From: a virus
Virus genome (UHGV): UHGV-2157276
Reading direction: 5' to 3' (one strand)
Length of the DNA: 11,904 nt
The notes under the pieces are model-generated. The model saw only the letters and a program-made list of their open reading frames with translations. It ran no database searches and had not been told where the DNA came from. This document shows positions 1 to 11,904 of this stretch, piece by piece. Within the stretch, counting starts at the first letter, position 1. Each line of letters starts with the position of its first letter. The position numbers and the translations under genes were made by a program.

Positions 1-1284
1 TTACTTCTTCGCCTCTGCAACCACTTTACTACCCACGCCGCGGTTATTGTATTCCCACATGCGGTTGTAGTTAGTGTCATTCAGATTGCGCTGTATTTCG
101 TCGTTATCATCTACGCTGCCGGTATTACCCGCAAACGGACGATTAGAGATCACCGCATCGGCCCACGGTTTAGCCGTGTTAAAACCTTCGTTGATGGCGC
201 TATCACGGATCACCACCTGACCGTTGGTATTGGCATCAACATCCAGCGAGCGGCCCAGTTGCGCCACACCATCACCGAAAGCATTGAAACGGCTGTTTAC
301 GGCGAGGAAACCGTAGTAAATGTTGGACAGCGTAGCCGGTGCAAACACATACGCTTCTTGCTGAGTACGTGAGTTCACCACGCGGAATTCGGTGTTATCG
401 AACACCACTGCGCCGCGACCAGAAACGATATCCACATCCCCTTCAATGTAGCTGTTGGTCACCAGCGTACGCGGCTGACGATTTGTTTCCAGACGGTTCT
501 GCACACCGCTGTTGGTGACAAAGAAGGTGTTCTGACGACCGAGAATGTTAACGTTGTTAATCTGTACCTGGTCACCATCAGTACGCAGTGCCACCGCCGG
601 ATGGTTACCTGCATCTACGCTATCGCCCAGCGTGTTTTCGATGGTCAGATTTTGCAGTTGCAGGCCATTGTTTTGTGACCAGAAGACCGCAGAGCAGAGA
701 ACACCGATACTGTCGCTGCGTTTGCTCTGGCAGCTATCGTACATATACCACGCTGGTTTACCTGGCATATATTTGCCGCGCGGGTTGACGTCGTGACGCC
801 AGTCGGCAGGGCTCATGCCACCATCAAGGGAAAGCCCAATCTTCACATCAATCGGTTTTTCACCTGTACCGTACAGAGTAATTCCACCCGGAGCGGCAGG
901 GACATATACCGTTCCCTGATACTCACCAGGCATCACGGCAATATACTGGCGCTTGTTGGTACGCTTGATAATTGCCGCATCTACCGCCGCCTGAATCGTG
1001 GTATGCGTTACACCTTGAGTGCCCGCCGGGCCGACAACAAAGTCAGGTTGCGCAGGCAGGGTAATCGGGGAAGGATTCCACGCTGCAGCACCTGGTGTCA
1101 GGGATGCAAAATAGTGTTGAGCATCGAAATTCTGCGCTTCTTTTGCCGACAGAATCGGGCGAGAAGAGGTACCAGGCGCGGTTTGATCAGAAGGACGTTG
1201 ATCGGGCGGGGTTGAGCTACAGGCGGTCAGCGTCACGCCAAAAGCCAATGCCAGCGCCAGACGGGAAACTGAAAATGTGTTCAC
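1..1284 (-). CDS. ybhC: YbhC-type lipoprotein (pectinesterase-like / acyl-CoA thioesterase family); host gene flanking the lambda attachment site
   Basis: 427-codon ORF on the minus strand, GTG start at 1282-1284 with GGAG 6 nt upstream, stop at 1-3. N-terminal signal peptide with lipobox LTAC. Sequence recognised from memory as E. coli YbhC. Confidence 0.85.
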   Translation of the reverse strand: MNTFSVSRLALALAFGVTLTACSSTPPDQRPSDQTAPGTSSRPILSAKEAQNFDAQHYFASLTPGAAAWNPSPITLPAQPDFVVGPAGTQGVTHTTIQAAVDAAIIKRTNKRQYIAVMPGEYQGTVYVPAAPGGITLYGTGEKPIDVKIGLSLDGGMSPADWRHDVNPRGKYMPGKPAWYMYDSCQSKRSDSIGVLCSAVFWSQNNGLQLQNLTIENTLGDSVDAGNHPAVALRTDGDQVQINNVNILGRQNTFFVTNSGVQNRLETNRQPRTLVTNSYIEGDVDIVSGRGAVVFDNTEFRVVNSRTQQEAYVFAPATLSNIYYGFLAVNSRFNAFGDGVAQLGRSLDVDANTNGQVVIRDSAINEGFNTAKPWADAVISNRPFAGNTGSVDDNDEIQRNLNDTNYNRMWEYNNRGVGSKVVAEAKK

Positions 1285-1330
1285 AGGTTGCTCCGGGCTA
1301 TGAAATAGAAAAATGAATCCGTTGAAGCCT

Positions 1331-1345
1331 GCTTTTTTATACTAA
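1331..1345. other. attL: lambda-type att common core at the host/prophage junction
   Basis: Exact 15-bp core GCTTTTTTATACTAA. Left flank is ybhC upstream DNA (B arm); right flank 1346-1418 is A/T-rich lambda P'-arm-like sequence running directly into the int stop codon. Confidence 0.8.
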
Positions 1346-1418
1346 GTTGGCATTATAAAAAAGCATTGCTTATCAATTTGTTGCAACGAACAGGTCACTA
1401 TCAGTCAAAATAAAATCA

Positions 1419-2489
1419 TTATTTGATTTCAATTTTGTCCCACTCCCTGCCTCTGTCATCACGATACTGTGATGCCATGGTGTCCGACTTATGCCCGAGA
1501 AGATGTTGAGCAAATTTATCGCTTATCTGCTTCTCATAGAGTCTTGCAGACAAACTGCGCAACTCGTGAAAGGTTGGCGGATCCCCTTCGAAGGAGAGAC
1601 CTGATGCTTTTCGTGCGCGCATAAAATACCTTGATACTGTGCCGGATGAAAGCGGTTCACGACGAGTAGATGCAATTATGGTTTCTCCGCCAAGAATCTT
1701 TTTGCATTTATCAAGTGTTTCCTTCATTGATATCCCGAGAGCATCAACATGCAATGTTGTTGGGATGGCAATTTTTACGCCTGTTTTGCTTTGCTCGACA
1801 TAAAGATATCCATCTACGATATCAGACCACTTCATTTCGCATAAATCACCAACTCGCTGCCCGGTAACAACAGCCAGTTCCATTGCAAGTCTAAGCCAAC
1901 ATGGTGATGATTCTGCTGCTTGATAAATTTTCAGGTATTCGTCAGCCGTAAGTCTTGATCTCCTTACCTCTGATTTTGCAGCGCGAGTGGCTGCGACCGG
2001 GTTTGTTGTTATATGGCCTTCAGCCATAGCCTCTCGGAATGCATCGCTCAGTGTTGATCTGATTAACTTGGCTGATGCCGCCTTTCCCTCGTCTATGTAT
2101 CCATTGAGCATTGCCGCAATTTCTTTTGTGGTGATGTCTTCAAGTGGAGCATCAGGCAGACCCCTCCTTATTGCTTTAATTTTGCTCATGTAATTTATGA
2201 GTGTCTTCTGCTTGATTCCTCTGCTGGCCAGGATTTTTTCGTAGCGATCAAGCCATGAATGTAACGTAACGGAATTATCACTGTTGATTCTCGCTGTCAG
2301 AGGCTTGTGTTTGTGTCCTGAAAATAACTCAATGTTGGCCTGTATAGCTTCAGTGATTGCGATTCGCCTGTCTCGGCCTAATCCAAACTCTTTACCCGTC
2401 CTTGGGTCCCTGTAGCAGTAATATCCATTGTTTCTTATATAAAGGTTAGGGGGTAAATCCCGGCGCTCATGACTTCGCCTTCTTCCCAT
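1419..2489 (-). CDS. int: Lambda-type integrase (tyrosine recombinase), 356 aa
   Basis: ORF starts MGRRRSHERRDLPPNLYIRNNGYYCYRDPRTGKEF and ends REWDKIEIK, matching lambda Int as I recall it. ATG at 2487-2489; overlaps xis by 23 nt as in lambda. Confidence 0.95.
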   Translation of the reverse strand: MGRRRSHERRDLPPNLYIRNNGYYCYRDPRTGKEFGLGRDRRIAITEAIQANIELFSGHKHKPLTARINSDNSVTLHSWLDRYEKILASRGIKQKTLINYMSKIKAIRRGLPDAPLEDITTKEIAAMLNGYIDEGKAASAKLIRSTLSDAFREAMAEGHITTNPVAATRAAKSEVRRSRLTADEYLKIYQAAESSPCWLRLAMELAVVTGQRVGDLCEMKWSDIVDGYLYVEQSKTGVKIAIPTTLHVDALGISMKETLDKCKKILGGETIIASTRREPLSSGTVSRYFMRARKASGLSFEGDPPTFHELRSLSARLYEKQISDKFAQHLLGHKSDTMASQYRDDRGREWDKIEIK

Positions 2490-2685
2490 TTCTGATCCTC
2501 TTCAAAAGGCTACCTGTTACTGGTCGATTTAAGTCAACCTTTACCGCTGATTCGTGGAACAGATATTCTCTTCCATCCTTAACCGGAGGAGGGAATATCC
2601 TGCATTCGCGCACCCATCGACGAACTGTTTCAAGGCTTCTTGGGCGTCGCTGGCGAGCGTTCCACTCCTGAAGTGTCAAGTACAT
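2467..2685 (-). CDS. xis: Excisionase Xis, 72 aa
   Basis: ORF MYLTLQEWNARQRRPRSLETVRRWVRECRIFPPPVKDGREYLFHESAVKVDLNRP matches lambda Xis; ATG at 2683-2685; 3' end overlaps the int start. Confidence 0.9.
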   Translation of the reverse strand: MYLTLQEWNARQRRPRSLETVRRWVRECRIFPPPVKDGREYLFHESAVKVDLNRPVTGSLLKRIRNGKKAKS

Positions 2686-2712
2686 CGCAAAGTCTCCGCA
2701 ATTACACGCAAG

Positions 2713-2733
2713 AAAAAACCGCCATCAGGCGGC
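2713..2733 (-). terminator. Candidate intrinsic terminator on the leftward transcript just upstream of xis
   Basis: On the minus strand, stem CCGCC / loop TGAT / GGCGG followed by TTTTTTC. The plus strand has no U-tract after the stem. Confidence 0.35.
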
Positions 2734-2844
2734 TTGGTGTTCTTTCAGTTCTTCAATTCGAATATTGGTTATGTCTGCATGTGCTATCTGCGCCCATATC
2801 ATCCAGTGGTCATAGCAGTCATTGATGTTCTCTGCTTCGATATC

Positions 2845-2874
2845 TGGCTGAAAGAGGGGGTTATTAAGGCGTGA
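2845..2874 (+). pseudogene. 3'-terminal remnant (about 10 codons) of a ybcO/nin-region gene whose stop overlaps the rusA start
   Basis: Frame ending [13 protein letters not shown] (stop 2872-2874) overlapping GTG 2871 of rusA resembles the C-terminus of DLP12 YbcO as I recall it. Upstream of about 2845 the frame is antisense xis-flanking DNA with no coherent coding signal. Exact boundary is uncertain. Confidence 0.3.
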
Positions 2875-3233
2875 ATACCTACAGCATCACATTACCCTGG
2901 CCTCCGAGCAATAATCGCTATTACCGCCATAATCGCGGGCGCACACACATCAGCGCAGAAGGGCAGGCATACCGCGATAACGTCACCCGAATCATTAAAA
3001 ACGCAATGCTGGATATCGGCCTGGCTATGCCAGTGAAAATCCGTATTGAGTGCCACATGCCGGATCGCCGTCGCCGTGACCTGGATAATCTGCAAAAAGC
3101 CGCTTTTGACGCACTCACCAAAGCAGGTTTCTGGCTGGATGATGCTCAGGTCGTTGATTACCGCGTTGTGAAGATGCCTGTTACCAAAGGTGGGAGGCTG
3201 GAACTGACCATCACCGAAATGGGGAATGAATGA
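2871..3233 (+). CDS. rusA: RusA-type Holliday junction resolvase, 120 aa
   Basis: GTG start at 2871. Protein [26 protein letters not shown]...[12 protein letters not shown] is recognised as RusA (nin-region resolvase of lambdoid phages / DLP12). Confidence 0.9.
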
Positions 3234-3370
3234 TGTTTGAGTTTAATATGGCAGAACTTCTTCGCCACCGCTGGATGCGCCTGCGCTTATATCGTTTCCC
3301 CAGTTCTGTTTTGACCGATTACCGAATACTGAGGAATTACGCCAAAACCCTGACAGGAGCAGGAGTATGA
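3230..3370 (+). CDS. ylcG: Small protein YlcG-like, 46 aa; not in the supplied ORF track
   Basis: ATGATG at 3230-3235 overlaps the rusA stop (3231-3233). Hand translation gives [46 protein letters not shown], stop TGA at 3368-3370. Matches DLP12 YlcG from memory. Confidence 0.6.
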
Positions 3371-3455
3371 AGTCAGAGATAACAATCAACTAATACTGTT
3401 TTATTGATTTTTGCTTGTAATTGGCGTTCTGGTCTGATTTTTGTGGAGTAAGTTG

Positions 3456-3839
3456 ATGCGTGATATTCAGATGGTTCTTGAGCGTTGGGGAGCGTGGGCG
3501 GCTAATAATCATGAAGATGTGACCTGGTCGTCCATTGCCGCCGGTTTTAAGGGATTAATTACTTCAAAAGTAAAATCTCGCCCGCAATGTTGTGACGATG
3601 ACGCGATGATCATTTGCGGGTGCATGGCCCGTCTGAAAAAGAACAACAGCGATTTGCACGATTTATTAGTAGATTATTATGTAGTCGGTATGACATTCAT
3701 GTCACTGGCAGGTAAGCATTGCTGCTCTGATGGTTATATCGGGAAAAGGTTACAGAAGGCTGAGGGTATAATTGAAGGGATGTTAATGGCATTAGATATC
3801 CGGTTAGAGATGGATATCGTTGTTAATAACTCTAATTAA
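3456..3839 (+). CDS. quuD: Late-gene antiterminator Q (QuuD-type), 127 aa
   Basis: ATG at 3456 preceded by GGAG (3445-3448, 7-nt spacer). Protein [24 protein letters not shown]...[11 protein letters not shown]. The ORF track starts at an upstream TTG (3441), which is less likely. Confidence 0.85.
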
Positions 3840-3849
3840 TATGCCAATT

Positions 3850-3891
3850 GTTTACTAAAAATTATTAAAAATGGGGCGTTGAGACGCCCCC
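3850..3891 (-). terminator. Intrinsic terminator for the minus-strand porin transcript
   Basis: Stem GGGGCGT / loop TGAG / ACGCCCC at 3873-3890; on the minus strand it is followed by ATTTTTAATAATTTTT. Confidence 0.5.
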
Positions 3892-3978
3892 AAAAATAAA
3901 GGGTAATATATAACAGAAGGTTTATATAGTTAGAAGCAAGGTTGTGCTCCTAAAGGAAGTGGCTTGAGGGAGCCACTT

Positions 3979-4012
3979 ATATGTTGGGGAGGCAAAGCCT
4001 CCCGCAACATAT
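3979..4012. terminator. Long stem-loop between Q and the nmpC 3' end; possible plus-strand terminator or mRNA-stabilising hairpin
   Basis: ATATGTTG-GGGAGGC / loop AAA / GCCTCCC-g-CAACATAT, a 15-bp stem with one bulge, followed on the plus strand by CTTTTAG. A second hairpin AAGTGGCT-tgaggg-AGCCACTT lies at 3957-3978. Confidence 0.4.
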
Positions 4013-4027
4013 CTTTTAGTAATCAAA

Positions 4028-5110
4028 TTAGAACTGGTAAACCATACCTACAGCAACGATATCATCGGTAGCAACGCCAGATGCTTTCGTGAAATCGCTC
4101 TTATCAATCAGGTTGATTTTGTAATCAACAAAAGTGGACATATTTTTGTTGAAGTAATAGGTTGCACCTACATCAATATATTCAACCAGGTCCTGATCAC
4201 CCCACGCACCCAAGTCTTTTCCTTTAGATTGCAGGTAAGCAACGGACGGACGCAGACCGAAGTCGAACTGATATTGTGCAACTACTTCGAAGTTTTGTGC
4301 TTTGTTGGCAATATGGTTATTACCAAAAACAGTCATGTTCTGGGTTTCAGAATAGGTGGTAGCCAGATAGATGTTGTTCGCATCATATTTCAGACCAGCT
4401 GCCCATACTTCAGCATTTTGACCAGATGCATTCAGGCTGTTGTTACCGTAGATAACCTGATTATTAGTGCGGTCAGATTTAGCATAGGTTGCACCTACAC
4501 CGAATCCTTCATACTCATAAGTAGTGGAGAAACCGAAACCATCACCATTAGCTTCAGTTACGTCAGTGCGGTCATTTTTACCCTGATACTGAGCAGCAAA
4601 GTTCAGACCATCAACCAGACCAAAGAAGTCATTGTTACGATAAGTTGCAACACCTGTGGTGCGACCAGTCATGAATACATCTGTTTGGGTCCAGGTATCG
4701 CCACCGAATTCTGGCAGAACGTCGGTCCATGCACCAATATCGTATGCTACACCGTAGTTACGGCCATAATCGATGGAGCCGTAGTCACCGAATTTCAGGC
4801 CAGCGAAGGCAAGACGGGTTTTATCTTTGGAGGAACCTTGAGATTCAGCGCGGTTGCCTTTGAATTCATATTCCCACTGACCGAAACCAGTCAGTTGATC
4901 GTTGATTTGGGTTTCACCTTTGAAGCCAAGACGGGCATAAGTAGTATCACCATCATCTGCATCATTAGAGGAGAAGTAGTGCTTAGCATTAACTTTCCCG
5001 TACAGATCCAGCTTGTTACTGTCTTTATTATAAATTTCAGCTGCCTGAGCAGACATCGCCATCAGTACTGATGCAGCTACAGCAGAAATTGCCACTGTTA
5101 ATTTTTTCAT
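4028..5110 (-). CDS. nmpC: General-diffusion porin of the OmpC/PhoE/NmpC family, apparently intact (360 aa)
   Basis: Start ATG at 5108-5110 gives [23 protein letters not shown] signal peptide then [16 protein letters not shown]; C-terminus ends VAVGMVYQF with the terminal Phe typical of porins. The ORF track's upstream start (5185) adds 25 non-porin residues. No IS interruption. Confidence 0.9.
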
Positions 5111-5140
5111 CGTGAGCCCTTTTTTTGAACTATTATTAAA

Positions 5141-5170
5141 AAATGATGTCACTGCAAATGATGTCACTGC
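5141..5170. repeat. Perfect tandem direct repeat, 2 x 15 bp (AAATGATGTCACTGC), 31-60 nt upstream of the nmpC start codon
   Basis: Read directly: 5141-5155 and 5156-5170 are identical. Confidence 0.85.
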
Positions 5171-5356
5171 GCGATAAATATTCATCTAATCAATGTGATT
5201 ATTTCAAGATGTAAGTTTTGGTTTCTCATTTGATTTGTGAAGTAGATCTCTATTTTTATCTGAACTTTTTCTATCGAATCCTATTCATGGCTCTTGGCTG
5301 AATAAAAATAAATCTATTAGCCAATTTATATTAATGGCTGTTATTTATAAGTGCTC

Positions 5357-5362
5357 TATAAT
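5357..5362 (+). promoter_or_regulatory. Candidate -10 hexamer of the late promoter (pR'-like)
   Basis: Perfect TATAAT on the plus strand about 190 nt upstream of the terminator at 5552-5584, similar spacing to lambda pR'/tR' (about 194-nt 6S RNA). No convincing -35 found. Confidence 0.3.
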
Positions 5363-5551
5363 TTGAAGATTCAATTTAAACCAGCTAAAAATAACGCTGG
5401 AAATTATTTGTTGGTTATTTGTTGAGATTTGCTTATGTATTTGTAGTGGTGTTTTCAATACTCGGTAGCATTCTCGCAAATATCATTTAGTGGTTTACGT
5501 ACGTAAAAAATTGGTTATGCTGTTAAGAGTGGTTACTTCGTCACACAGCTT

Positions 5552-5584
5552 AAACCCGCCGTCGAGCGGGTTTTTCCATTTTTT
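5552..5584 (+). terminator. Intrinsic terminator upstream of the lysis genes (tR'-like)
   Basis: AAACCCGC / loop CGTCGA / GCGGGTTT followed by TTTTTCCATTTTTT on the plus strand. Confidence 0.6.
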
Positions 5585-5712
5585 GAGTCTCGATATTAGC
5601 TGATAACCCAATACCTGAGTTATTCACTGACTCCGAGTCTGTTACGTTTCTGCTTTTTTGCGATACGTTGTATTCCCTCAATTTACACCCGCTTTGTCTG
5701 CGAGGTGGGGTT

Positions 5713-5928
5713 ATGAAATCCATGGATAAGTTAACAACGGGTGTCGCCTATGGCACCTCAGCAGGTAGTGCCGGTTACTGGTTTTTACAGCTGCTCGATA
5801 AAGTCACGCCCTCACAGTGGGCAGCAATAGGTGTGCTGGGTAGCCTGGTATTTGGCCTGCTGACGTACCTGACAAACCTTTATTTCAAGATTAAAGAAGA
5901 TAAGCGCAAGGCTGCGAGAGGTGAATAA
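5713..5928 (+). CDS. essD: Phage-21-type pinholin with dual-start motif (antiholin/holin), 71 aa
   Basis: ATG at 5713 preceded by [80 protein letters not shown]; two TM segments, Met1-Lys-Ser-Met4 dual start, charged C-terminus. The ORF track start (5668) is upstream with no RBS. Confidence 0.9.
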
Positions 5929-6425
5929 TGCCTCCATCATTACGAAAAGCCGTTGCTGCTGCTATTGGTGGCGGAGCAATTGCTATAGCATCAGTGTTAA
6001 TTACTGGCCCAAGTGGTAACGATGGTCTGGAAGGTGTCAGCTACGTACCATACAAAGATATCGTTGGCGTATGGACTGTATGTCACGGACACACCGGAAA
6101 AGACATCATGCTCGGTAAAACGTATACCAAAGCAGAATGCAAAGCACTCTTGAATAAAGACCTTGCCACTGTCGCCAGACAAATTAACCCGTACATCAAA
6201 GTCGATATACCGGAAACAACGCGCGGCGCTCTTTACTCATTCGTTTACAACGTGGGTGCTGGCAATTTCAGAACATCGACGCTTCTTCGCAAAATAAACC
6301 AGGGCGATATCAAAGGCGCATGTGATCAGCTACGTCGCTGGACATATGCTGGCGGTAAGCAATGGAAAGGTCTCATGACTCGTCGTGAGATTGAGCGTGA
6401 AATCTGTTTGTGGGGTCAGCAATGA
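5928..6425 (+). CDS. rrrD: SAR endolysin (T4-lysozyme-like, phage 21 R-type), 165 aa
   Basis: Start overlaps the holin stop (TAATG). N-terminal Gly/Ala-rich weakly hydrophobic segment [18 protein letters not shown] (signal-anchor-release domain), followed by an E..D..T motif region ([17 protein letters not shown]). Confidence 0.9.
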
Positions 6426-6883
6426 ACAGAGTAACCGCGATTATCTCCGCTCTGGTTATCTGCATCATCGTCTACCTGTCATGGGCTGTTAATCATTACC
6501 GTGATAACGCCATTACCTACAAAGCCCAGCGCGACAAAAATGCCAGAGAACTGAAGCTGGCGAACGCGGCAATTACTGACATGCAGATGCGTCAGCGTGA
6601 TGTTGCTGCGCTCGATGCAAAATACACGAAGGAGTTAGCTGATGCGAAAGCTGAAAATGATGCTCTGCGTGATGATGTTGCCGCTGGTCGTCGTCGGTTG
6701 CACATCAAAGCAGTCTGTCAGTCAGTGCGTGAAGCCACCACCGCCTCCGGCGTGGATAATGCAGCCTCCCCCCGACTGGCAGACACCGCTGAACGGGATT
6801 ATTTCACCCTCAGAGAGAGGCTGATCACTATGCAAAAACAACTGGAAGGAACCCAGAAGTATATTAATGAGCAGTGCAGATAG
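6422..6883 (+). CDS. rzpD: Spanin inner-membrane subunit Rz, 153 aa
   Basis: ATG at 6422 overlaps the endolysin stop (ATGA). N-terminal TM segment [19 protein letters not shown] then coiled-coil-like sequence. From the start of this gene the DNA appears lambda-like. Confidence 0.9.
6642..6824 (+). CDS. rzoD: Spanin outer-membrane lipoprotein Rz1, 60 aa, embedded in the +1 frame of Rz
   Basis: [20 protein letters not shown] lipoprotein signal with lipobox, Pro-rich mature region [16 protein letters not shown]; entirely inside Rz. Confidence 0.85.
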
Positions 6884-6884
6884 A

Positions 6885-6906
6885 GTTGCCCATATCGATG
6901 GGCAAC
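6885..6906. terminator. Hairpin between convergent Rz and bor; possible bidirectional terminator
   Basis: GTTGCCCAT / ATCG / ATGGGCAAC, 9-bp perfect arms, 2 nt after the Rz stop and 9 nt before the bor stop. U-tracts are weak on both strands. Confidence 0.4.
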
Positions 6907-6914
6907 TCATGCAA

Positions 6915-7208
6915 TTATTGTGAGCAATACACACGCGCTTCCAGCGGAGTATAAATGCCTAAAGTAATAAAACCGAGCAATCCATTTACGAATGTTTGCT
7001 GGGTTTCTGTTTTAACAACATTTTCTGCGCCGCCACAAATTTTGGCTGCATCGACAGTTTTCTTCTGCCCAATTCCAGAAACGAAGAAATGATGGGTGAT
7101 GGTTTCCTTTGGTGCTACTGCTGCCGGTTTGTTTTGAACAGTAAACGTCTGTTGAGCACATCCTGTAATAAGCAGGGCCAGCGCAGTAGCGAGTAGCATT
7201 TTTTTCAT
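6915..7208 (-). CDS. bor: Bor outer-membrane lipoprotein, 97 aa
   Basis: MKKMLLATALALLITGC signal with lipobox, then AQQTFTVQNKPAAVAPKETITHHFFVSGIG...; matches lambda Bor from memory. Confidence 0.9.
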   Translation of the reverse strand: MKKMLLATALALLITGCAQQTFTVQNKPAAVAPKETITHHFFVSGIGQKKTVDAAKICGGAENVVKTETQQTFVNGLLGFITLGIYTPLEARVYCSQ

Positions 7209-7498
7209 GGTGTTATTCCCGATGCTTTTTGAAGTTCGCAGAATCGTATGTGTAGAAAATTAAACAAACCCTAAACAATGAGTTGAAATTTCATATTGTT
7301 AATATTTATTAATGTATGTCAGGTGCGATGAATCGTCATTGTATTCCCGGATTAACTATGTCCACAGCCCTGACGGGGAACTTCTCTGCGGGAGTGTCCG
7401 GGAATAATTAAAAACGATGCACACAGGGTTTAGCGCGTACACGTATTGCATTATGCCAACGCCCCGGTGCTGACACGGAAGAAACCGGACGTTATGAT

Positions 7499-7909
7499 TT
7501 AGCGTGGAAAGATTTGTGTAGTGTTCTGAATGCTCTCAGTAAATAGTAATGAATTATCAAAGGTATAGTAATATCTTTTATGTTCATGGATATTTGTAAC
7601 CCATCGGAAAACTCCTGCTTTAGCAAGATTTTCCCTGTATTGCTGAAATGTGATTTCTCTTGATTTCAACCTATCATAGGACGTTTCTATAAGATGCGTG
7701 TTTCTTGAGAATTTAACATTTACAACCTTTTTAAGTCCTTTTATTAACACGGTGTTATCGTTTTCTAACACGATGTGAATATTATCTGTGGCTAGATAGT
7801 AAATATAATGTGAGACGTTGTGACGTTTTAGTTCAGAATAAAACAATTCACAGTTTAAATCTTTTCGCACTTGATCGAATATTTCTTTAAAAATGGCAAC
7901 CTGAGCCAT
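7499..7909 (-). CDS. ybcV: YbcV-like protein (DUF1398 family), function unknown; 136 aa from the best-supported start
   Basis: ORF on minus strand; the ATG at 7907-7909 ([11 protein letters not shown]...) has AAGG 8 nt upstream. In-frame upstream starts at 7951 (ATG) and 8032 (GTG) lack an RBS. AT-rich gene. Confidence 0.7.
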
Positions 7910-8194
7910 TGGTAAAACCTTCCATGTGATACGAGGGCGCGTAGTTTGCATTATCGTTTTTATCGTTTCAATCTGGTCTGACCTCTTTGTGTTTTGTTGA
8001 TGATTTATGTCAAATATTAGGAATGTTTTCACTTAATAGTATTGGTTGCGTAACAAAGTGCGGTCCTGCTGGCATTCTGGAGGGAAATACAACCGACAGA
8101 TGTATGTAAGGCCAACGTGCTCAAATCTTCATACAGAAAGATTTGAAGTAATATTTTAACCGCTAGATGAAGAGCAAGCGCATGGAGCGACAAA

Positions 8195-8401
8195 ATGAAT
8201 AAAGAACAATCTGCTGATGATCCCTCCGTGGATCTGATTCGTGTAAAAAATATGCTTAATAGCACCATTTCTATGAGTTACCCTGATGTTGTAATTGCAT
8301 GTATAGAACATAAGGTGTCTCTGGAAGCATTCAGAGCAATTGAGGCAGCGTTGGTGAAGCACGATAATAATATGAAGGATTATTCCCTGGTGGTTGACTG
8401 A
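8195..8401 (+). CDS. ybcW: YbcW-like small protein, 68 aa, function unknown
   Basis: ATG at 8195 with GGAG 7 nt upstream; [68 protein letters not shown]. Confidence 0.7.
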
Positions 8402-8565
8402 TCACCATAACTGCTAATCATTCAAACTATTTAGCCTGTGACAGAGCCAACACGCAGTCTGTCACTGTCAGGAAAGTGGTAAAACTGCAACTCAATTACT
8501 GCAATGCCCTCGTAATTAAGTGAATTTACAATATCGTCCTGTTCGGAGGGAAGAACGCGGGATGT

Positions 8566-8760
8566 TCATTCTTCATCACTTTTAATTGATGTATATGCTC
8601 TCTTTTCTGACGTTAGTCTCCGACGGCAGGCTTCAATGACCCAGGCTGAGAAATTCCCGGACCCTTTTTGCTCAAGAGCGATGTTAATTTGTTCAATCAT
8701 TTGGTTAGGAAAGCGGATGTTGCGGGTTGTTGTTCTGCGGGTTCTGTTCTTCGTTGACAT
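8566..8760 (-). CDS. ylcI: YlcI-like small protein (64 aa) with predicted ribbon-helix-helix DNA-binding fold
   Basis: MSTKNRTRRTTTRNIRFPNQMIEQINIALEQKGSGNFSAWVIEACRRRL: basic N-terminal tail, beta-strand NIRFP, helix, G-x-N/S turn, second helix. This is the RHH (CopG/Arc/ParD-like) pattern. Confidence 0.7.
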   Translation of the reverse strand: MSTKNRTRRTTTRNIRFPNQMIEQINIALEQKGSGNFSAWVIEACRRRLTSEKRAYTSIKSDEE

Positions 8761-8959
8761 GAGGTTGCCCCGTATTCAGTGTCGCTGATTTGTATTGTCT
8801 GAAGTTGTTTTTACGTTAAGTTGATGCAGATCAATTAATACGATACCTGCGTCATAATTGATTATTTGACGTGGTTTGATGGCGTAGATGCACGTTGTGA
8901 CATGTAGATGATAATTATTATCATTTTGCGGGTCCTTTCCGGCGATCCGACAGGTTACG

Positions 8960-8971
8960 GGGCGGCGACCT
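8960..8971. other. cosN: lambda 12-nt cohesive-end site (GGGCGGCGACCT), flanked by cosQ-like and cosB-like sequence
   Basis: Exact GGGCGGCGACCT preceded by ...GATCCGACAGGTTACG (lambda right end) and followed by TCGCGGGTTTTCGCTATTTATGAAAATTTTCCGG (lambda left end). Confidence 0.85.
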
Positions 8972-9148
8972 CGCGGGTTTTCGCTATTTATGAAAATTTT
9001 CCGGTTTAAGGCGTTTCCGTTCTTCTTCGTCATAACTTAATGTTTTTATTTAAAATACCCTCTGAAAAGAAAGGAAGCGACAGGTGCTGAAAGCGAGCTT
9101 TTTGGCCTCTGTCGTTTCCTTTCTCTGTTTTTGTCCGTGGAATGAACA

Positions 9149-9694
9149 ATGGAAGTCAACAAAAAGCAGCTGGCTGACATTTTCGGTGCGAGTATCCGTA
9201 CCATTCAGAACTGGCAGGAACAGGGAATGCCCGTTCTGCGAGGCGGTGGCAAGGGTAATGAGGTGCTTTATGACTCTGCCGCCGTCATAAAATGGTATGC
9301 CGAAAGGGATGCTGAAATTGAGAACGAAAAGCTGCGCCGGGAGGTTGAAGAACTGCGGCAGGCCAGCGAGGCAGATCTCCAGCCAGGGACTATTGAGTAC
9401 GAACGCCATCGACTTACGCGTGCGCAGGCCGACGCACAGGAGCTGAAAAATGCCAGAGACTCCGCTGAAGTGGTGGAAACCGCATTCTGTACTTTCGTGC
9501 TGTCGCGGATCGCAGGTGAAATTGCCAGTATTCTCGACGGGATCCCCCTGTCGGTGCAGCGGCGTTTTCCGGAACTGGAAAACCGACATGTTGATTTCCT
9601 GAAACGGGATATCATCAAAGCCATGAACAAAGCAGCCGCGCTGGATGAACTGATACCGGGGTTGCTGAGTGAATATATCGAACAGTCAGGTTAA
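9149..9694 (+). CDS. nu1: Terminase small subunit Nu1, 181 aa, full length
   Basis: MEVNKKQLADIFGASIRTIQNWQEQGMPVLRGGGKGNEVLYDSAAVIKWYAERDAEIENEKLRR...; N-terminal winged-HTH. Overlaps the A start by 26 nt as in lambda. Confidence 0.95.
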   Translation: MEVNKKQLADIFGASIRTIQNWQEQGMPVLRGGGKGNEVLYDSAAVIKWYAERDAEIENEKLRREVEELRQASEADLQPGTIEYERHRLTRAQADAQELKNARDSAEVVETAFCTFVLSRIAGEIASILDGIPLSVQRRFPELENRHVDFLKRDIIKAMNKAAALDELIPGLLSEYIEQSG

Positions 9695-10730
9695 CAGGCT
9701 GCGGCATTTTGTCCGCGCCGGGCTTCGCTCACTGTTCAGGCCGGAGCCACAGACCGCCGTTGAATGGGCGGATGCTAATTACTATCTCCCGAAAGAATCC
9801 GCATACCAGGAAGGGCGCTGGGAAACACTGCCCTTTCAGCGGGCCATCATGAATGCGATGGGCAGCGACTACATCCGCGAGGTGAATGTGGTGAAGTCTG
9901 CCCGTGTTGGTTATTCCAAAATGCTGTTGGGTGTTTATGCCTACTTCATAGAGCATAAGCAGCGCAACACACTTATCTGGTTGCCGACGGATGGTGATGC
10001 CGAGAACTTTATGAAAACCCACGTTGAGCCGACCATCCGCGATATTCCGTTGCTGCTGGCGCTGGCTCCGTGGTATGGCAAAAAGCACCGGGATAACACG
10101 CTCACCATGAAGCGTTTTTCCAATGGTCGTGGCTTCTGGTGCCTGGGCGGTAAAGCGGCAAAAAACTACCGTGAAAAGTCGGTGGATGTGGCGGGTTATG
10201 ATGAACTTGCTGCCTTTGATGAGGATATTGAACAGGAAGGCTCTCCGACGTTCCTTGGCGACAAACGTATTGAAGGCTCGGTCTGGCCAAAGTCCATCCG
10301 TGGCTCCACCCCCAAAGTGAGAGGCACCTGCCAGATTGAGCGTGCAGCCAGTGAATCCCCGCATTTTATGCGTTTTCATGTTGCCTGTCCGCACTGCGGG
10401 GAGGAGCAGTACCTTAAATTTGGCGATAAAGAGACGTCGTTTGGCCTCAAATGGACGCCGGATGATCCCTCCAGCGTGTTTTATCTCTGCGAACATAATG
10501 CCTGCGTCATCCGCCAGCAGGAACTGGACTTCACTGATGCCCGTTATATCTGCGAAAAGACCGGGATCTGGACCCGTGATGGCATTCTCTGGTTTTCGTC
10601 ATCCGGTGAAGAGATTGAGCCGCCGGACAGCGTGACCTTTCACATCTGGACGGCGTACAGCCCGTTCACCACCTGGGTGCAGATTGTCAAAGACTGGATG
10701 AAAACGAAAGGGGATACCTTCTGCCCGTAA
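9669..10730 (+). pseudogene. A: Terminase large subunit gpA, N-terminal 350 of about 641 codons, truncated at a deletion junction
   Basis: MNISNSQVNRLRHFVRAGLRSLF...[14 protein letters not shown] then 3 unrelated codons (FCP) and stop. Walker-A-like KSARVGYSK is present; the C-terminal nuclease half is absent. Confidence 0.85.
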
Positions 10731-11904
10731 GGTGAATGGTAAGGCGCTTTCAGCGGATATAACACTGACGCCGAAAGATATTGGTACGCTTAACTCAACA
10801 ACAATGTCATTCAGCGGTGGTGCTGGTTGGTTCAAATTAGCAACGGTAACCATGCCACAGGCGAGTTCTGTTGTTTCAATTACGTTGATTGGTGGCGCGG
10901 GATTTAACGTGGGGTCACCTCAACAGGCAGGTATATCTGAACTTGTTTTGCGTGCAGGTAATGGTAATCCGAAGGGGATTACTGGTGCTTTATGGCAGCG
11001 CACATCGACAGGGTTTACAAATTTTGCCTGGGTCAATACATCTGGTGATACTTACGATATTTACGTTGCAATCGGAAATTATGCGACTGGTGTAAATATT
11101 CAATGGGATTATACCAGTAATGCCAGCGTGACGATTCATACGTCACCAGCATATTCTGCTAATAAGCCGGAAGGGTTAACGGACGGTACAGTTTATTCAC
11201 TCTATACGCCATCAGAGCAGTTTTATCCGCCTGGCGCACCAATCCCGTGGCCATCAGATACCGTTCCGTCTGGCTATGCCCTGATGCAGGGGCAGACTTT
11301 TGACAAATCTGCATACCCGAAACTTGCAGCCGCTTATCCGTCAGCCGTGATCCCTGATATGCGTGGCTGGACGATTAAGGGCAAACCCGCCAGTGGTCGT
11401 GCCGTATTGTCTCAGGAACAGGACGGCATTAAATCGCACACCCACAGCGCCAGCGCATCCAGTACGGATTTGGGGACGAAAAACACATCGTCGTTTGATT
11501 ACGGAACCAAATCCACGAATAACACCGGGGCGCATACCCATAGTATTAGCGGGACTGCAAATAGTGCCGGTGCGCACCAACACAAGAGTTCCGGTGCATT
11601 TGGTGGCACGAACACGAGCATTTTCCCTAATGGTTATACCGCGATTTCAAATCTAAGCGCGGGGATTATGAGCACAACAAGCGGTAGTGGCCAGACTCGT
11701 AATGCAGGGAAGACATCATCAGATGGTGCTCATACCCACTCGCTGTCCGGCACTGCTGCAAGCGCAGGCGCACATGCACATACTGTCGGTATTGGTGCTC
11801 ATACGCACTCCGTTGCGATTGGCTCACACGGACACACCATCACCGTTAACGCTGCTGGTAACGCGGAAAACACCGTCAAAAACATCGCATTTAACTATAT
11901 TGTG
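10720..11904 (+). pseudogene. stf: Side tail fibre (Stf-type) gene fragment, 5'-truncated, open to the end of the window
   Basis: Frame 1 is open from 10702 to 11904 and is not in the ORF track because it has no stop. Hand translation ends ...[60 protein letters not shown], the His-x-His repeat C-terminal region of lambda-family Stf. Possible internal starts are GTG 10732 and ATG 10804. Confidence 0.75.

Follow-up and report, generated by a model that had tools for sequence, protein, structure and literature searches.

The int-xis module at the left of the window

The window, that is, the whole stretch of 11,904 nucleotides of virus genome UHGV-2157276 which was analysed, opens with ybhC (1-1284, minus strand) and continues with a lambda-type integration module, the two being annotated as neighbours also in A14, AST198 and C1. 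Between ybhC and int lies an exact copy (0.01 expected by chance) of the 15-mer GCTTTTTTATACTAA, at 1331-1345 and with no strand assigned, which we take to be the core of the lambda attachment site and which marks the left end of a prophage. The integrase gene (1419-2489, minus strand) is intact and encodes a tyrosine integrase of 356 aa carrying the Pfam Phage_integrase domain and the lambda Arm DNA-binding domain; its DNA is 100% identical to that of A14. The excisionase gene xis (2467-2685, minus strand), also intact, encodes 72 aa (Pfam Exc, E = 3.9e-41) and matches lambda xis at 28860-29078.

Just beyond xis, the minus strand carries a putative pI promoter region (2680-2711) with a CII site of the form TTGC-N6-TTGC at 2698-2711, the assignment of pI and CII function being suggested by identity to an annotated stretch of phage 434 (OL657226). 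A terminator scan places an intrinsic terminator at 2710-2735 on the same strand, made up of a stem-loop (2716-2735) and a T-run (2710-2715); the hairpin, which folds with -16.1 kcal/mol (z = -3.3) and holds the stop codon of orf55 within its loop, is real, and the position given for it in a preliminary description of this DNA (2713-2733) was close. The same hairpin is found in lambda, while phage 434 has in this position a different hairpin with a terminator annotation; this annotation, together with the identity to lambda, indicates that the element probably acts as a terminator here too.

With the attachment core, an arm-binding Int, Xis, the pI site and the terminator, all parts of a lambda-type int-xis module at att-lambda are present, and the native transcription of this DNA is leftward. 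The likeness to lambda beyond xis, already suspected, is borne out by alignment, since window positions 2450-2842 match lambda J02459 28843-29235 at 97.2%, the match ending at 2842. The last element on this side is the 3' remnant of orf55, the small lambda ORF beyond xis (2725-2842, minus strand), which lacks its start codon and its first ~17 codons: in A14 and in lambda-type phages the complete ORF has 55 aa (a complete CDS at 2725-2892 of the A14 locus), and what is left of it in the window is a 25-aa ATG ORF at 2725-2802. In annotations, 2725-2842 should accordingly be labelled as a truncated small ORF.

The rusA-ylcG-quuD block and the remainder of the window

On the plus strand, 2842-2874 reads ATC TGG CTG AAA GAG GGG GTT ATT AAG GCG TGA, the last 10 codons and the stop of ybcO as read from the window and from the comparison with its parents; the TGA overlaps the GTG start of rusA at 2871 (GTGA, a 4-nt overlap), an arrangement found identically in the DLP12 prophage of E. 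coli K-12. A C-terminal ybcO peptide whose stop overlaps the rusA start had indeed been described here. The purine-rich GAGGGGG at 2854-2860, 10 nt upstream of the GTG, is retained and would be the ribosome-binding site of rusA. The gene itself (2871-3233, plus strand) is intact and encodes a Holliday-junction resolvase of 120 aa (Pfam RusA, E = 1.6e-22), identical to K-12 RusA at 118 positions out of 120 and carrying D70, D72 and D91. It is followed, on the same strand, by ylcG (3230-3370; 46 aa), annotated under this name at the matching position in A14 and in K-12, and by quuD (3456-3839; Pfam Phage_antitermQ, E = 4e-53), whose product is a Q-type antiterminator of 127 aa, all 127 of them shared with K-12 QuuD. 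The block thus represents a DLP12-type module, with an intact RusA carrying its catalytic aspartates, YlcG and the Q antiterminator in that order, and the DNA is 98.3% identical to K-12 (NC_000913.3) over window positions 2841-4066, a stretch that takes in the final 34 nt of ybcO and then rusA, ylcG and quuD.

A full-length ybcO (96 aa, PF07102) is absent directly upstream of rusA, where only the 10 codons remain, and no full-length ybcO-like ORF exists in the interval between xis and rusA. The RusA protein identical to that of the window is listed in 19,244 blocks of the collection; among the places listed, a full ybcO precedes it in 9 of 10 contexts, and xis adjoins rusA in none of the 10.

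The plus-strand reading frame which runs from 2554 to 2874, antisense through xis and into the ybcO remnant, was considered as a chimeric gene of 106 aa or as a translation coupler into rusA, and rejected: it has no Pfam match, its likeness to YbcO is limited to the last 10 residues, and downstream of the one weak promoter-like site (see below) its frame contains no canonical start. Positions 2842-2874 are therefore best annotated as a ybcO remnant, neither the 106-aa nor a 61-aa plus-strand ORF being a gene.

In other copies of the family (L001, 4300-4414; L002, 3630-3744; L011, 2794-3001) only the tail of ybcO, 90 nt, is kept before rusA, and in L011 the order is ninX, a 207-nt spacer and then rusA; it appears that the 3' end of ybcO moves together with rusA and forms the boundary of a module. 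AST198 and C1 were considered as independent deletions at the same position of ybcO, which would make of it a hot spot; this was rejected, since a shared stretch of ~25 nt (ending in GGGCATGCCAAGCAA), absent from A14 and K-12, precedes their 90-nt tails, and they represent a different mosaic allele.

Downstream of quuD, the window contains a minus-strand porin gene, lysis genes, bor, ybcV and nohD. The porin gene (4028-5110), of the OmpC/NmpC type, is intact (Pfam Porin_1, E = 3.9e-153), and its K-12 DLP12 counterpart nmpC is split by IS5. At 5141-5170, 31-60 nt upstream of the porin start codon, in what is likely the promoter or leader of this gene, the window carries a 15-bp tandem duplication (two copies of AAATGATGTCACTGC) that is single in A14. 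Further downstream, at about 10714-10718 (coordinates obtained by shifting the A14 annotation by 5,866), an older deletion joint shared with A14 makes a terminase large-subunit gene without its C-terminus (9669 onward) run into a tail-protein fragment without its N-terminus.

The joint and its parental sequences

The two flanks described above match lambda and the K-12 ybcO-rusA region separately, and they meet at 2841-2842 (no strand), in a TA dinucleotide common to both parental sequences: the identity to the left parent ends at 2842 and that to the right parent begins at 2841. The switch point had been put at about 2843-2845; the junction is real, and its earlier placement was accurate to about 3 nt.

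Both parents are found in a single genome, E. coli A14, and the proposal that xis-proximal DNA has been fused by deletion to the last ybcO codons upstream of rusA is upheld by collinearity with it. Window positions 1-2842 are 100% identical, with 0 mismatches, to positions 1-2842 of the A14 locus, and positions 2841-11904 are 99.8% identical to 8722-17770 of the same locus (position 8722 corresponding to 2841 in the window, where the identity to the right parent starts), with three substitutions and one 15-bp indel; between these collinear blocks A14 has 5,881 bp more than the window. The polarity of the event can be read from the two genes cut by the joint: in A14 each has its full length (2725-2892, minus strand, for the 55-aa ORF; 8465-8755 for ybcO), and in the window they are truncated, to 2725-2842 and 2842-2874, respectively, so that the window represents the derived, deleted form. 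Besides the 5' part of the 55-aa ORF and 86 of the 96 codons of ybcO, the lost segment comprises ybcN, ninE, a 33-aa ORF (ylcH in K-12), a DUF2513 gene, two hypothetical genes, pseudogene fragments, Ea22', TraR/DksA and a recT'/'ren joint.

As for the mechanism, the microhomology at the joint amounts to 2 bp (TA), the adjacent bases differing in both parents, and the parental comparison reveals no IS end, att site or long repeat there; the loss of the 5,881 bp would then have occurred in a single event, by illegitimate recombination at the microhomology level, in an E. coli lambdoid prophage which resided at the lambda attachment site and was defective beforehand. Such a short overlap bears also on whether the joint could be an artefact of sequencing or assembly, i.e., two contigs of one prophage wrongly put together: the uniqueness of the junction among all the collections searched (see below) is what such an error would leave, but assemblers make their joins at long overlaps, which a 2-bp TA is not, the sequences at the two breakpoints do not repeat one another, and private deletions are common in cryptic prophages, which makes this explanation very improbable. 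The best explanation of the locus as a whole, held with high confidence, is a single 5,881-bp deletion scar in an already defective att-lambda prophage, with the consequences for expression inferred below; no observation speaks against the deletion as such. On the minus strand, the deletion would have left the terminator, pI, xis and int untouched and inactivated the small ORF beyond xis.

Order of the deletions

The segment missing from the window is informative on the history of the prophage. At 5593-6161 of the A14 locus (L003) it carries a recT'/'ren fusion, and the undeleted relatives (A14, NCTC9041, FORC_081 and others) have no N, cI, cro, cII, O or P; because they already carry this fusion, pR was lost before the 5,881-bp deletion took place. 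The recT'/'ren joint of A14 shows that the immunity and replication region, from N to P and including pL and pR, was missing already in the common ancestor.

The preliminary description, according to which the rusA-ylcG-Q block had been deprived of its pR-proximal context and placed behind DNA transcribed in the opposite direction, is thus to be amended in one respect: the block has no pR and does lie behind leftward-transcribed DNA, but pR was not lost at this joint, having disappeared with the earlier recT'/'ren fusion seen in the relatives. The joint under study is a second, nested deletion in an already dead prophage. The locus therefore offers a clean, datable case of stepwise prophage erosion, in which an older recT'/'ren deletion was followed by a nested one, leaving int-xis on one side and rusA, Q, porin, lysis genes and bor on the other; beyond annotation its significance is little.

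Distribution of the joint

The occurrence of the joint was surveyed by megablast against complete E. coli genomes and phages, using as queries 2300-3400, 2600-2900 and the whole window, and by exact-pattern scans, with a 34-mer (GTTCTCTGCTTCGATATCTGGCTGAAAGAGGGGG) and a 22-mer, of JGI metagenome contigs and of the GTDB representatives. The joint is crossed by no sequence among 5,426 complete E. coli genomes and 50,697 phage records; in particular, the interval 2686-2870 has no uninterrupted counterpart in either set. In the GTDB species representatives and the JGI metagenome contigs nothing but one chance match was found. An identical 23-mer (2831-2853) in Haloquadratum walsbyi J07HQW1 (KE356560.1) and in contig KB659956.1 was dismissed as fortuitous, the flanks being unrelated. 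The window as a whole is covered at 99.8% by A14, NCTC9041, NCTC9100, FORC_081, RM10410 and CM2010-0578/1, in all of which additional DNA separates the two matching pieces.

The same survey bears on the reading of the joint as a natural mosaic boundary in a viable lambdoid phage, produced by recombination between two phages and not by deletion within a prophage. Lambdoid phages are mosaic, and a ybcO 3' tail without the remainder of the gene does precede rusA elsewhere (AST198, C1, and L011 with ninX and then a spacer); yet both flanks occur together in none of the 223 matching phage records at >=80% coverage, the layout with xis next to rusA is devoid of every early, immunity and replication gene, and both flanks are essentially identical to one prophage which carries the intervening 5.9 kb. 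The phage mosaic reading is effectively excluded. The allele appears to be private and of a familiar kind, a case of ordinary prophage decay and no new system.

Expression of rusA, ylcG and quuD

What can be said about expression rests on consensus scans, which are weak evidence. A standard promoter scan, with a threshold of at least 9 of 12 consensus positions, finds no plus-strand promoter upstream of rusA in 2300-2870. A relaxed scan finds a weak sigma-70-like site, TCTGCA-17-TATCAT (8/12), at 2774-2802 on the plus strand, inside the orf55 remnant; the last base of the site (2802) lies 69 nt upstream of the rusA GTG (2871), and no other plus-strand candidate is present between xis and rusA. 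Promoter-like matches in the region are no commoner than in shuffled sequence. A promoter created by the joint itself, with a -35 element from the left and a -10 element from the right, was also considered and rejected, TTGATG at 2823-2828 having, by eye, no usable -10 at 15-19 nt. In the segment deleted from the window, the best plus-strand promoter-like site of A14 is GTGATA-16-TATAAT at 6590-6617, before two hypothetical genes; since matches in this segment are no more frequent than in shuffled sequence, nothing is concluded about promoters lost with it.

In K-12, the rusA gene of DLP12 has been described as "normally quiescent" and is switched on only by upstream insertions of IS2 or IS10 (PMC1636454), while the DLP12 lysis operon is reportedly under a Q-type antiterminator, RpoE and Hha, according to a passage of PMC7918800 citing Rueggeberg et al. 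2013 and 2015. K-12 DLP12 is also without pR. By analogy, and because no convincing plus-strand promoter is found upstream, rusA and ylcG in the window are most likely silent or expressed at background level, as is K-12 rusA; quuD is probably expressed as weakly as in K-12, its protein being identical to K-12 QuuD and its local context the same. Some plus-strand transcript could nonetheless arise from the 8/12 site at 2774-2802 or from antisense read-through from int/xis. The question of what drives rusA and Q at such a locus, raised in the preliminary description, is fair but not new.

The K-12 precedent suggests a further explanation, namely that the deletion was selected because it activates rusA, in analogy with the rus-1 and rus-2 suppressors of ruv mutations, either because a weak plus-strand promoter of the lambda-derived DNA came to lie no more than ~70 bp from the gene or because terminators in front of it were lost. 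The start codon of rusA and its purine-rich leader are kept right up to the joint, the weak TCTGCA-17-TATCAT site is present at 2774-2802, and rearrangements upstream of rusA are known to switch it on (PMC1636454). The site, however, scores only 8/12 and falls under the threshold of the standard scan, promoter-like matches are no more common than in shuffled sequence, a search for promoter capture of the rus-1/rus-2 type found no IS or other outward-promoter DNA upstream of rusA, and the allele, present in no other genome searched, shows no sign of spread. Selection for rusA activation is thus unlikely, and there is correspondingly little chance that adaptive rewiring, with rusA (and ylcG-quuD) placed under the weak plus-strand promoter or under antisense read-through of int-xis, and not neutral decay, accounts for the joint. 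Were it to apply, the lineage would have a constitutive low level of RusA resolvase and of Q activity, and a deletion changing rusA expression would be the equivalent in nature, without an IS, of the laboratory rus suppressors; nothing here points that way.

Comparison with known systems

The closest relatives of the locus are the A14-type defective prophages inserted at att-lambda on the ybhC side, which share with it the site, int, xis, rusA, ylcG, quuD, the porin gene, the lysis genes, bor, ybcV and nohD, and differ from it by the extra DNA, measured for A14 at 5,881 bp, between the start region of orf55 and the tail of ybcO; the window, for its part, has the 15-bp tandem duplication before the porin gene and the three substitutions relative to A14. 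Phage lambda shares the left flank, with its CII site and the terminator hairpin that follows xis, but continues into the complete small ORF and ea8.5, whereas the window leaves lambda at 29235 and joins ybcO. The rus-1 and rus-2 alleles of K-12 also result from a rearrangement directly in front of a rusA gene that would otherwise be silent (PMC1636454), but they bring an IS with an outward promoter, and the deletion in the window brings no IS and no convincing promoter. With K-12 DLP12 the window shares the ybcO-rusA-ylcG-quuD region, with a near-identical RusA and an identical QuuD; DLP12 differs in its argU site, in its integrase, in having a complete ybcO and nin region and in its IS-disrupted nmpC, whereas the prophage in the window occupies the att-lambda site, has ybcO reduced to 10 codons and keeps an intact porin gene. 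Its layout combines a lambda-type int-xis region, at the left, with a nin/late region of the DLP12 type, at the right.
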